Below are positions 16,329 through 46,899 of a DNA stretch of 64,000 nt, piece after piece. The position numbers and the translations under genes are program-made. Source of the DNA: Candidatus Bipolaricaulota bacterium (GTDB lineage Bacteria > Bipolaricaulota > Bipolaricaulia > M55B111); NCBI GenBank assembly GCA_018400715.1, contig JAGYME010000004.1, forward strand, positions 11,468-75,467. The letters run 5' to 3'. Within the stretch, counting starts at the first letter, position 1; each line of letters starts with the position of its first letter. Below the pieces are notes generated by a model. The model saw nothing but the letters and a program-made list of their open reading frames with translations, searched no databases and was not told the DNA's origin.

Positions 16329-16583
16329 CTAATCATCCTCGTCTTCGTCCATTCCGGGTACGGGGTCGTAACCACCGGGGTTTAACGGGTGACAGCGCAG
16401 GATCCGTCTGATACCCAGATAAAGCCCCTTAGTTGGGCCGTGGCGCTCTATCGCTTGCTTGTTGTACTCCGAACAGGTTGGGTAAAATCTACAGGTATTG
16501 GGAAACCCTGGAGATATTGCCCTCTGGTAGAACTTAATAATTCCCAGCAAAGATGTCTTTAACAGTTTGTCTATCCTGAGCAA
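16329..16583 (-). CDS. yidD: Membrane protein insertion efficiency factor
   Basis: [35 protein letters not shown]; TTG 16583 after GAGGGGG (alternative start 16613). Confidence 0.92.
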
Positions 16584-17802
16584 ATCTATATGAACCCCCC
16601 TCAACTGATTCAAGTTTACCAGGTACGTCTGCTACGTCCAACTCTCCGACGGTAAGGTCACAACCCAGATTTCCACTGAGTGAAGGTAGGCTCCTGTGAC
16701 CCTCCGAGGTAATTAATTCTTTGATATAAAGTCCGCTCTCAGCCCAGAGATAAACTTCGTAATTCCGGTCTCCGGCCCTCCTTCCGCTGGCGCCGAACAC
16801 CCGCCTGACTCTAACGAGGTCTGATCTTCTATGGGCAACTCTGGTCGGTGTTCGTTGAAATATCCTTCCCTGAATTTTCCGTAAGCCCTCCGCGAAATCA
16901 TCTGCGCCTATCTCGACTTCTGAGTCTACGAGGGCCCGATATATCTTATCGGGTTTAGCGCTCTTGATCGCTTCGACCGCTCCCTTCGCGACGATTCTTA
17001 AGTTTCTGATCTCAAGATCTTCGGACTTTTTGGTCTCCTCCTTGAGGTCATTTAGATCAAGGCTCCGGATTCTCGGTTCTCGTAACTCCACGACGAACGG
17101 TCGCCCTCCGCCAAGGCATAGGACGTCCACGTCCTCCCTTCCCCCTCCGTGAAAGACGGACGATTCCGAGCGGCTAAGGGACCGGGCGGGCGAAGAGATT
17201 ATCTCTTCGACGGAATTGGAGTAACCCATCTCCGGCCAGTCCGTCTGTGGGATCCCCCGGGTGAGTTTTCGATATCTACCGTAGACGTAGACGGGGCGGA
17301 GTTCAATTTCGATTCGGTCGTTTTCGAAGTCCAGGAGTACGGTCAAATCAGGAGTATCGAAGTCCGCCTCGACCGTTATTCCCCTCTCCGCCAGGTTATC
17401 CCTGAAGCGTTTCCCCAGGGCGCGGTTGACGGCGTGGCTGAAGTCCTCTGCGTTCTTGAGGTTATATTTCTCCTCCAGACTTTCCTGGTTCCGTTTCACC
17501 ACTCTCCTTAACCTGGTGCCAAACAGGAAGGTGGAGAATTCGTAACCCTCAACCGTCTCTATAGTCCTTTCTACCCAGGAGTCGAGGTCCGAGCAGAGGC
17601 CAAAGCATATATTGCAACTATCGTCCTCCACGATCGGTTTATCCATGACCATCCCCGCGACGGTCCTCAGGGATTTCCCCCGCTCCCTGTTGGTTAGCCC
17701 GTGGCTTAGCTCCCCGAAGAGCCTTCCCAGGCAGCTGTCACAAATTTCGTGGTCCTCCAGGATCCTTGCTGCAGTTGAAACTACGTCGGGCTCTTTGCTC
17801 AT
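16534..17802 (-). CDS. pus10: tRNA pseudouridine(54/55) synthase, Pus10 family (archaeal type)
   Basis: N-terminal CDSCLGR..C..C, THUMP-like region, [47 protein letters not shown]; ATG 17802 after AAGGAGG. Confidence 0.9.
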
Positions 17803-17956
17803 ACCTGCCTCCTTATATAGGTCGTTATTCCGCACCGAACAGAAGATATTACTAAATATCTGGGCCCTTTTATACCGGGTTGAGTTAGCTTTGACGATCT
17901 TGAGTCGGCATTGTTTGTCCTGGGGGAGTCGGAAGGGAAACCTACGGGTTTATTGC

Positions 17957-18048
17957 TGGCGGAGGGGGTGGGATTCGAACCCACGGCTGAGTTCCCACTC
18001 AGCAATGGCTTAGCAAGCCATCGTCTTCGGCCACTCGACCACCCCTCC
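17957..18048 (-). tRNA. tRNA-Ser(GCT) with long variable arm and encoded CCA
   Basis: GGAGGGGTGGTCGAGTGG...ATGGC TT GCT AA GCCAT...GGTTCGAATCCCACCCCCTCCGCCA. Confidence 0.97.
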
Positions 18049-18064
18049 AGGGGCATCGTATCTT

Positions 18065-18093
18065 AATTTACCACATCGGCAGGGGGTTTTCAA
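18065..18093 (-). promoter_or_regulatory. Putative promoter of tRNA-Ser and downstream pus10-yidD
   Basis: Minus strand TTGAAA-N17-TAAATT with an extended -10 TG. Confidence 0.55.
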
Positions 18094-45047: not shown

Positions 45048-45938
45048 TTAGTCTGAGAGGATTTCTCTCGCCTGCTCTACAATTCTCTTGATAGCCCCGC
45101 TAAGTTCTGCCCTGTCACGGTAACGAATGCTCGGAGAGATAAATTTTATCAAATCTAGTTCGACGTCCTCCCCGTAAATATCATTATCGAAGTCAAAAAT
45201 GTGAACTTCAACCTGCGTCTTAGACTCGTTAAACGTCGGTTTCTGGCCAACGTAAACTACTCCTTTATGGCTCTCGCCGTTGACTCTGACGAGTGCAGCG
45301 TAACTACCCGACGCTGGTCTGACGACCCGTTCGTCTACGTTCAAGTTGGCTGTGGGGAAGCCGATGTCCCGACCAATTCGGTTCCCGCCGACTACCTCCC
45401 CGTAGATCGCTGGGGGGTTGCCTAAGAGTTCTCGGGCCCGCTGGACGTTTCCTCTCTCCATTTCTCGTCTTATCCACGTGCTGCTGATGGCCCTCCCTTC
45501 ACTCTTTACTTGCTCTATTGGGTGTATCGTGAACCTTCCGTCCGAGAGTGTGTAAAGTTTGTCTAAGGAACCAGCCCTGTTAGCCCCGAACCTCCAGTCG
45601 GTGCCGACAATTATCGCTCCTACGTGGAGTTCCTGGACAAGCACATTTTCCACGAATTTCCTGGGGCTATAGTCTTTTACCTCTTCAAAATCGTGGACTA
45701 CCACCTCGTCGACGTATCCTTTGAGGGTACGAATCTTCTCTTTGGGGGGCATCAGCAGTGGCGGTCGGTTTCCGGTAAAGTACCGCCGTGGGGGTATTCG
45801 GTAGGTATACGCGGCGCTGGTCAAACCCCTCTCCCTGGCGACCTTTTTAGTCTCCGACAGTAAGGCCTGATGACCAAGATGGACCCCGTCAAAGGTTCCA
45901 ACCGCCAGCGCGACGTTGATAGTATCAAAGTTATGCAT
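45048..45938 (-). CDS. ribF: Riboflavin kinase/FAD synthetase
   Basis: GTFDGVHLGHQ, DWRFG, ISST.IR, GFPTAN, VEVHIFDF..DIYG. Confidence 0.97.
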   Translation of the reverse strand: MHNFDTINVALAVGTFDGVHLGHQALLSETKKVARERGLTSAAYTYRIPPRRYFTGNRPPLLMPPKEKIRTLKGYVDEVVVHDFEEVKDYSPRKFVENVLVQELHVGAIIVGTDWRFGANRAGSLDKLYTLSDGRFTIHPIEQVKSEGRAISSTWIRREMERGNVQRARELLGNPPAIYGEVVGGNRIGRDIGFPTANLNVDERVVRPASGSYAALVRVNGESHKGVVYVGQKPTFNESKTQVEVHIFDFDNDIYGEDVELDLIKFISPSIRYRDRAELSGAIKRIVEQAREILSD

Positions 45939-46899
45939 TTATACGTTTGTTTACCTCGGAGAGGACCCGTTTTCGTACCTTTTCCAACTCTCCTTCGACG
46001 AGGCAACCAGCGGCTACGGTATGGCCTCCTCCTCCGAACTTGCTGGCTACCTGGCTGACGTCAAAGCCTCCCTTTGACCTCAGTGAAACCTTGACTCTAT
46101 TTTCGGGTAGTTCCTTGAATACACAGGCAACCATCGCTCCCTCCGTCGTCCGAAGGGTGCCGATTATTCCCTCGGTATCCTCGCCGGTTGCGTTAACTTC
46201 TTCCAGAAGGGAAGGAGTTATCGTTGTCCAGACGACTCCGTTTTCAAATTCCGCCTCCGAGAGGACCTTGCCCAGCAACTGGAGCTTTGTGAATGGTTCC
46301 CGTTCGTAAAGGTTAACTATGACTGACCTCGCGTTGGCGCCACTCCGTAGGAGATTTGCTGACCTTTCCATTACTTCTGGGCCCACGTTATCGTTTCTGA
46401 AAGAGGAGGTGTCGGCGATTATTCCTGCGTAAAGTGCTGTTGCCATGGGTTCGTCAAGGTTTAGGCCCATGTACTCGATCAGTTCGGCGATTATTTCTGT
46501 CGTTGCGGCGACGTCCTGGACGTGATTGATAACTCCGAAGTTGTCATTGTCTTTGTGATGGTCAATGTTGATTATCGGTAGTCCCGCGAACAATCTCTTG
46601 CCCGCGTTGCCAAGCCGGTCAAGGTCGCTACAATCGACAACTATACCTACTTCGACCCCAGATAACTCGTTTTCGTCTATCTTACCGGGTTTCTTGACCG
46701 CATCAGCTCCTTTTAGAAAGGAGAGATTTCTGGGGACGCCGTCTACGTTTACCAGAATAGTCTTCTTGCCCCGCTGACGGAGTGCCCGACTTAGTCCTAG
46801 TTGGCTGCCTATCGCGTCAGCCTCCGGGCTGCGGTGAGAGCCAATGATGAACTTCTCGTGGCGAGAGATTACGTCTTCTACCTCTTTAAGTCTGTTCAT
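45931..46899 (-). CDS. DHH/DHHA1 phosphoesterase (NrnA-like nanoRNase/pAp phosphatase)
   Basis: H..P..DA.GS, VDC, IDHH, DT..F, SLRS..GGGGH..AAG. Confidence 0.93.
   Translation of the reverse strand: MNRLKEVEDVISRHEKFIIGSHRSPEADAIGSQLGLSRALRQRGKKTILVNVDGVPRNLSFLKGADAVKKPGKIDENELSGVEVGIVVDCSDLDRLGNAGKRLFAGLPIINIDHHKDNDNFGVINHVQDVAATTEIIAELIEYMGLNLDEPMATALYAGIIADTSSFRNDNVGPEVMERSANLLRSGANARSVIVNLYEREPFTKLQLLGKVLSEAEFENGVVWTTITPSLLEEVNATGEDTEGIIGTLRTTEGAMVACVFKELPENRVKVSLRSKGGFDVSQVASKFGGGGHTVAAGCLVEGELEKVRKRVLSEVNKRINA

Follow-up and report, generated by a model that had tools for sequence, protein, structure and literature searches.

Archaeal-type Pus10 in place of TruB across the bacterial phylum Bipolaricaulota, with a forefinger-less Pus10 in one lineage

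The window, the whole 64,000-nucleotide stretch of DNA analysed here (G000:C111:11468-75467), comes from the metagenome-assembled genome (MAG) G000 of a bacterium of the phylum Bipolaricaulota and carries on its reverse strand a gene for Pus10. This enzyme makes pseudouridine (Ψ) at tRNA positions 54 and 55 (Ψ54/Ψ55) in archaea and eukaryotes, and bacteria use TruB; TruB and Ψ55 are regarded as almost universal in bacteria, and TruB is a common marker gene for placing bacterial genomes. The pus10 coding sequence occupies 16534..17802 (−), from an ATG at 17802 to a stop codon at 16534-16536, and encodes 422 amino acids, a call supported by the open reading frame (ORF) and its translation, by hidden Markov models and by the predicted fold. 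A Shine-Dalgarno sequence, AAGGAGG, is read at 17808..17814 (−), 5 nt ahead of this ATG, making the alternative GTG start further upstream, at 17835, unlikely. Neither the enzyme family nor its chemistry is new, and genome annotation pipelines label the gene as Pus10 already, the NCBI entry MCI2430852.1 being titled 'tRNA pseudouridine(54/55) synthase Pus10 [Candidatus Acetothermia bacterium]'.

The N-terminal zinc-binding region (17605..17742, −) holds four cysteines, C21xxC24 and C63xxC66, which are invariant in our two alignments (A1 and the 40-sequence A2) and occupy the positions of the four zinc ligands of human PUS10 and of C31/C34/C106/C109 in the M. jannaschii enzyme, MjPus10 (as given in PMC3753934). 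A THUMP RNA-binding domain follows at residues 76-158 (17329..17577, −; Pfam PF22023, Pus10_THUMP_arc, 1.3e-18, 67.4 bits against a cut-off of 28), and then the pseudouridine synthase catalytic domain at residues 172-393 (16624..17289, −), where the Pfam profile Pus10_C (PF21238) matches at 1.3e-54 with 185.7 bits against a cut-off of 27, over profile positions 1-231 of 232, and the sequence aligns with residues 285-520 of human PUS10. The active-site motif HGGGREDVD (residues 218-226; 17125..17151, −) consists of columns invariant in A1 and A2, aligns with the GREDVD motif of the human enzyme and contains R222 and the catalytic D224, the counterparts of R273 and D275 in MjPus10. Residues R222, D224, D226, Y288, H324, R325 and L388 are all invariant in A2 and correspond to residues of MjPus10 that were probed experimentally in PMC3753934, and the residues critical in MjPus10 are conserved in the window protein in both alignments. 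On the NCBIfam equivalog TIGR01213, "tRNA pseudouridine(54/55) synthase Pus10", the protein scored 384.7 bits against a cut-off of 200. An AlphaFold2 model built from the 40-sequence alignment reached a mean predicted local distance difference test score (pLDDT) of 92.2 and a predicted template modelling score (pTM) of 0.86, and its top fold match in the PDB (Foldseek) was human PUS10, 2V9K (E 3e-31, TMq 0.77), with other pseudouridine synthases at about 1e-9, 22 orders of magnitude behind; 2V9K was also the sole match in a sequence search of the PDB. The Pus10 motifs listed by the first-pass annotation are all present in the translation, in agreement with Pfam and TIGR01213, and the doubt it had raised, that the best profile or structural match might be another family, is settled, with Pus10 the best match by both routes. 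Together, these results demonstrate that the window protein is a true Pus10 with an intact architecture: zinc site, THUMP domain, catalytic motif and Pus10 fold. Behind the catalytic domain lies a lineage-specific C-terminal extension of about 28 amino acids (residues 395-422; 16537..16620, −), which the alignment shows to be shared by the closest relatives (P0006-P0013) and missing from the Pus10 of other Bipolaricaulota families, and which is modelled, at lower confidence, as two short strands and a helix.

We gathered the Pus10 loci of relatives by profile search. TIGR01213 matched in 40 of 41 relatives, in 169 of the 184 genomes of the phylum, in 52 of 54 genera and in every one of the 71 high-quality genomes, which include the single-contig genomes G023 and G026. 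TruB (TIGR00431) had no match in G000 and none in the 41 relatives. The TruB_N profile (PF01509), which also detects archaeal Cbf5 and was positive in 14 of 14 control genomes, likewise gave no match in G000, and no match over its cut-off in any of the 75 genomes that are at least 90% complete, G023 and G026 again among them. This pattern of presence and absence points to a phylum-wide, non-orthologous displacement of TruB by an archaeal Pus10. In many bacteria truB sits between nrnA and ribF. In the window these two genes (nrnA, of the DHH family, and ribF; 45048..46899, −; NCBIfam NrnA and RibF) have no truB between them and overlap by 8 nt at 45931-45938, an arrangement that fits a clean deletion of truB.

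The other enzymes acting on the bacterial T-loop were missing as well. TrmFO (TIGR00137) was over its cut-off in none of the 41 genomes, its sole matches being partial ones inside ORFs of about 620 amino acids, which we take to be MnmG (GidA) paralogues, and the TrmA/RlmD family (PF05958) was essentially absent from the same 41, with one generic match of 23 bits. The archaeal enzyme Trm56 (PF01994) was found in none of the 41 genomes, indicating that the imported archaeal module is limited to positions 54 and 55. The T-loop sequence GTTC[AG]A was present in 41 of the 42 tRNAs predicted by ARAGORN in G000; the odd one, an 87-nt 'tRNA-Pro(GGG)' at G000:C98:14533-14619 without a canonical T-loop, is probably a false positive.

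The archaeal partner of Pus10 at position 54, TrmY (PF04013), was present in all 22 relatives outside the window's family (f1) and in 120 of the 149 genomes that are at least 80% complete, one example scoring 233 bits on the TrmY equivalog NF002560. No TrmY was found in the f1 genomes searched (19 in one survey and 11 in another, G000 included), and tblastn with the TrmY of a relative gave no match in G000. The window's family has lost TrmY. Genus g23 of family f6 (L109-L111) displays a second, independent loss of TrmY; its Pus10 retains the zinc knuckle described below and reads GIAQT for GIPQT and GREDAD for GREDID, with no Tyr ahead of SVEE. As to gene arrangement, trmY and pus10 share a contig in family f7 (G028:C1 and G037:C3), separated by 13-14 kb, and are far apart or on different contigs in the other families.

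Comparison of the window protein with other Bipolaricaulota Pus10 (alignment A1, together with a comparison within the family) revealed a deletion at W189-N196 (WPEMGYSN; 17215..17238, −). Where the others read WPCRxCRGxGCxxCxxTGKxYPESVEE, the window Pus10 is missing 15 residues and all four cysteines of the CxxCxGxGCxxC knuckle; the short segment after QT.W without a CxxC..CxxC insert, noticed when the sequence was first read, is thus real. The deletion is common to the window Pus10 and two orthologues with intact motifs, P0006 of G001 (68% identity) and P0007 (63%), and the insert is kept in G002 of the same genus, in genera g2 and g3 and in all other families. This distribution argues for a recent, derived and stably inherited change rather than an ancestral trait. 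An obligatory coupling of TrmY loss to forefinger loss was considered and rejected, since g23 and most of f1 have no TrmY and yet have the insert. The four-Cys insert is also missing from several archaeal Pus10, namely L047 and L049 (Natronomonas), L090 (Aenigmatarchaeota) and L020 (an uncultured archaeon), and its loss is therefore recurrent beyond the Thermococcales.

In MjPus10 the forefinger (ffl) comprises two segments, ffl1 (Cys227-Arg231) and ffl2 (Cys238-Val249), both of which precede Arg273 and Asp277 of the active site (Joardar et al. 2013, PMC3753934). We mapped these segments by numbering back from the catalytic Asp (taken as 275) of the insert-bearing relatives, MjPus10 itself standing outside the alignment, and the count returned C227, R231, C238, V249, R273 and D277, the published boundary and active-site residues. 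On this mapping the deletion in the window Pus10 takes out ffl1, the linker and the beginning of ffl2, and with them all four of the presumed zinc ligands. In the published work (PMC3753934), deletion of ffl1 reduced Ψ54 formation in vitro to 5-6% and left Ψ54 formation in vivo; deletion of ffl2, or of both segments, abolished Ψ54 both in vitro and in E. coli and left Ψ55 only; all three mutants kept more than 60% of the Ψ55 activity; and the Pyrococcus enzyme, naturally without the ffl segments, is Ψ55-specific. The pair of segments that marks the dual-specificity archaeal subtype (ffl1 with ffl2) is incomplete in the window Pus10, and the pair of enzymes that marks the archaeal 1-methylpseudouridine-54 (m1Ψ54) pathway (Pus10 with TrmY in the same genome) is incomplete in G000. 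With the forefinger deleted and TrmY lost, an enzyme that forms Ψ55 only is the most economical prediction, and by analogy with the mutants we lean slightly towards it: the window Pus10 would modify U55 and leave U54 unmodified.

The window lies within an 84.5-kb contig of the MAG, which totals 2.19 Mb in 176 contigs and is 88% complete. The pus10 gene is flanked by obg, nadD, infC, glyQ, glyS and yidD on one side and by tRNA-Ser(GCT), lexA and dinB on the other. ARAGORN places the tRNA-Ser(GCT) gene (17957..18048, −), with the T-loop GGTTCGAATCC, 154 nt upstream of pus10 on the same strand, so that pus10 does lie just downstream of a tRNA gene, as had been pointed out at first reading. The ORF overlapping its 3' end is yidD (16329..16613, −; TIGR00278 at 1.3e-24, and ORF coordinates). 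A consensus scan detected a promoter-like site, TTGAAA-17-TAAATT with a TG element, upstream of the tRNA gene (18065..18093, −) and no terminator-like site between tRNA-Ser and pus10. Across 16534-18093 (−), tRNA-Ser(GCT), pus10 and yidD are thus found on one strand, with the promoter-like site solely upstream of the tRNA, and a single transcript may carry the tRNA together with the enzyme that modifies it. The order glyS-yidD-pus10-tRNA-Ser(GCT)-lexA is kept in five related MAGs (G001 and G002 of the same genus, G004 of genus g3, and G011 and G013 of genus g2). Beyond family f1 the gene order around pus10 is not kept, and synteny is therefore unusable for dating the acquisition. The GC content of pus10 is 0.529 and that at third codon positions (GC3) 0.60, against a GC content of 0.47-0.54 in the neighbours and 0.522 in the genome; its base composition is native and fully ameliorated. 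The host is bacterial, and the chimeric contig that the first-pass annotation had allowed for is excluded by the bacterial flanks, the synteny in five MAGs and the native GC.

Outside the bacteria, the nearest relatives of the window Pus10 are those of Halobacteriota, at 36-42% identity, and no named bacterium outside Bipolaricaulota appeared among the Pus10 matches. In a quick maximum-likelihood tree of 99 Pus10, unrooted, without an outgroup and with the archaea represented by the 80 best matches, 27 Bipolaricaulota rows including the window formed one group with a Shimodaira-Hasegawa-like approximate likelihood ratio test (SH-aLRT) support of 95, apart from the Halobacteriota-type archaeal sequences. 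The bacterial Pus10 scored 385-530 bits on the archaeal equivalog TIGR01213, on which Sulfolobus falls below the cut-off, which suggests that they are nested among the euryarchaeal proteins and do not derive from a gene ancestral in bacteria. These comparisons are best explained by an archaeal origin, through an event that would be ancient and phylum-wide. The horizontal acquisition from archaea first proposed thus holds as to the source, but not as a local or recent event, given the 71 of 71 high-quality genomes, the native GC and the conserved neighbourhood. The comparison with archaeal Pus10 that had been suggested as a check, now run, places the window protein with the Bipolaricaulota.

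Four genomes of genus g2 (G003, G006, G010 and G014) encode a very divergent Pus10 elsewhere in the genome. Three of them have no pus10 at the ancestral yidD-tRNA-Ser site (G003, L117, G003:C21; G010, L118, G010:C33; G014, L120, G014:C50); the distance from yidD to tRNA-Ser, with lexA behind it, is 78-900 nt, too small for a 1.2-kb pus10, so the ancestral site is empty. The contig of G006 ends at the tRNA. The best non-self matches of the divergent proteins are all archaeal, at 42-45% identity, and the syntenic g2 copies (G011 and G013) match the window's family first. Archaeal contamination was considered for the divergent copies and rejected, as that of G014 (L121:7398-8618, G014:C65) has frr and the genes of the F0F1 ATP synthase as its neighbours within a contig of 95 kb and is thus chromosomal and bacterial. 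In the tree the divergent group sits on a branch 0.99 long next to Aenigmatarchaeota (SH-aLRT 89), and the approximately unbiased (AU) test did not reject a single origin of all 31 bacterial Pus10 (p = 0.106). A second acquisition is therefore read from the empty ancestral site and the BLAST ranking, not from the tree, and the second pus10 of g2 is probably a xenologous replacement. That the ancestral gene was deleted and another is present fits an indispensable function.

We propose that pus10 encodes the functional Ψ55 synthase of this bacterium and that an ancestor of the phylum took the gene from an archaeon, and we put the probability of this reading at about 0.85. The ancestor of Bipolaricaulota would have received both pus10 and trmY from a donor resembling a euryarchaeon and would then have lost truB; with no trmA and no trmFO, the archaeal position-54/55 module would have displaced the bacterial T-loop enzymes. 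The THUMP and N-terminal zinc domains would dock the tRNA, and D224, with R222, Y288, H324/R325 and L388, would convert U55 to Ψ within the GUUCRA T-loop. In most other Bipolaricaulota both m1Ψ54 and Ψ55 are probably formed; in the window species and two close orthologues the forefinger knuckle would have been deleted, in a family also without TrmY, leaving Ψ55 only. Several points weigh against this account. What Bipolaricaulota Pus10 does is deduced from sequence throughout; the MAG is 88% complete, and the absence of truB and trmY from this single genome leans on the relatives; the losses of TrmY and of the insert are not strictly coupled, as g23 and most of f1 demonstrate; human PUS10, also without ffl2, forms Ψ54 in some tRNAs (PMC3753934, PMC6380271), and the deletion is therefore no proof that Ψ54 activity is lost; and the unrooted tree with only the 80 best archaeal matches formally settles donor and direction of transfer no further than "euryarchaeon-like".

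An archaeal gene misplaced on, or binned with, a bacterial genome would also explain why the nearest named matches outside Bipolaricaulota are all archaeal, and the fragmentation and 88% completeness of the MAG might invite such an error; pus10, however, lies inside an 84.5-kb contig amid bacterial genes whose GC and GC3 it matches, its neighbourhood recurs in five other MAGs, and it is found in all 71 high-quality genomes, the single-contig G023 and G026 included. Conserved synteny and phylum-wide presence refute an artefact, to which we assign practically no weight. A recent, lineage-specific acquisition, with TruB merely missing from an incomplete MAG, finds some encouragement in g2, where four genomes with a second, archaeal-like copy at another locus suggest that pus10 entered the phylum more than once, but in the tree the window copy falls among the other Bipolaricaulota Pus10 (SH-aLRT 95), TruB is absent from the 75 genomes that are at least 90% complete, and the composition is fully ameliorated; we regard it as very improbable. 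Vertical inheritance, with Pus10 and TrmY ancestral in a deep-branching bacterial lineage, seems improbable too, if slightly less so. The titles of two papers call Bipolaricaulota deep-branching (PMC9586279; bioRxiv 10.1101/2025.11.21.689855), and in a tree without an outgroup the bacterial clade is simply one side of a branch. Against this stand the want of any named bacterium outside the phylum among the matches, the scores of 385-530 bits on an archaeal model that leaves Sulfolobus below its cut-off, and the otherwise universal TruB/Cbf5 (14 of 14 controls).

Dual Ψ54/Ψ55 activity of the window enzyme, kept despite the deletion, or action on another RNA target, is a possibility that we think doubtful but far from negligible. 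Human PUS10 without ffl2 forms Ψ54 in select tRNAs (PMC6380271) and MjPus10 without ffl1 still did so in vivo (PMC3753934); the deletion in the window protein, however, takes ffl1, the linker, the start of ffl2 and all four zinc ligands, the MjPus10 mutants without ffl2 or without both segments made Ψ55 only, in vitro and in E. coli (PMC3753934), and TrmY, which depends on Ψ54, has been lost in the family. A Ψ55-only enzyme in the window's lineage thus stays our preferred prediction.

According to a review of T-loop modification from 2021, Pus10 is "not in Bacteria" (PMC7912444), and when we searched the literature for Pus10, TruB or pseudouridine together with Acetothermia or Bipolaricaulota, nothing relevant emerged. 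The family without TrmY, the clade of forefinger-less Pus10, the extension at the C-terminus and the g2 replacement are new findings. With TruB and TrmA/TrmFO exchanged for archaeal Pus10 and TrmY, the phylum offers a clear-cut example of non-orthologous displacement between domains of life in the core translation machinery, and the natural variants among close relatives, with or without the forefinger and with or without TrmY, serve the dissection of Pus10 specificity. We advance tentatively, at somewhat less than even odds, the composite view that Bipolaricaulota are the first bacterial phylum with the archaeal m1Ψ54-Ψ55 T-loop in place of T54-Ψ55, that the window's lineage has Ψ55 beside an unmodified U54, and that repeated capture of pus10 reflects strong selection for Ψ55. 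If so, the tRNAs of that lineage would bear neither the bacterial nor the archaeal modification at position 54, and the replacement of a first pus10 by a second in g2 would mean that Ψ55 synthesis is strongly selected once TruB is gone. A first cultured Bipolaricaulota isolate is reported in a preprint (bioRxiv 10.1101/2025.11.21.689855). With such an isolate reported, the Pus10 prediction becomes testable on native tRNA.

Among known systems, the closest archaeal counterpart in design is the M. jannaschii Pus10, reportedly described by Gurha and Gupta in 2008 as a dual tRNA Ψ54/Ψ55 synthase. The two proteins have the same architecture (N-terminal four-Cys zinc domain, THUMP and catalytic domain); R273, D275, D277, Y339, H376/R377, I412/K413 and L440 of the archaeal enzyme all have equivalents in the window Pus10, and a GUUCRA T-loop is the expected substrate of both. 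In contrast to MjPus10, the window protein has no zinc knuckle of the kind needed for Ψ54, carries a tail of about 28 amino acids and resides in a bacterial host without TrmY. The P. furiosus Pus10, which forms Ψ55 alone both in vitro and in E. coli, has a naturally shortened forefinger region like the window protein, a parallel drawn from the paper's description and not from a sequence alignment. Pyrococcus makes neither Ψ54 nor m1Ψ54 (PMC3753934, PMC7912444) and methylates U54 through an RlmD-derived enzyme, whereas our TrmFO and TrmA/RlmD searches found no U54 methyltransferase in 41 genomes. Human PUS10 (2V9K), the best structural match and likewise without ffl2, differs in its low identity (23%), its greater length, its formation of Ψ54 in a subset of tRNAs and its coexistence with TRUB1. 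Bacterial TruB (E. coli, T. maritima) has the same predicted role, tRNA Ψ55, and shares the pseudouridine synthase core, as weak Foldseek matches to 1K8W and 1R3E indicate, but belongs to a different family and has neither the THUMP nor the zinc domain found in the window Pus10. The other Bipolaricaulota Pus10 are orthologues at 38-52% identity in the same TruB-less background; their zinc knuckle is retained and TrmY is encoded in most of the genomes, whereas the lineage of the window has lost both.

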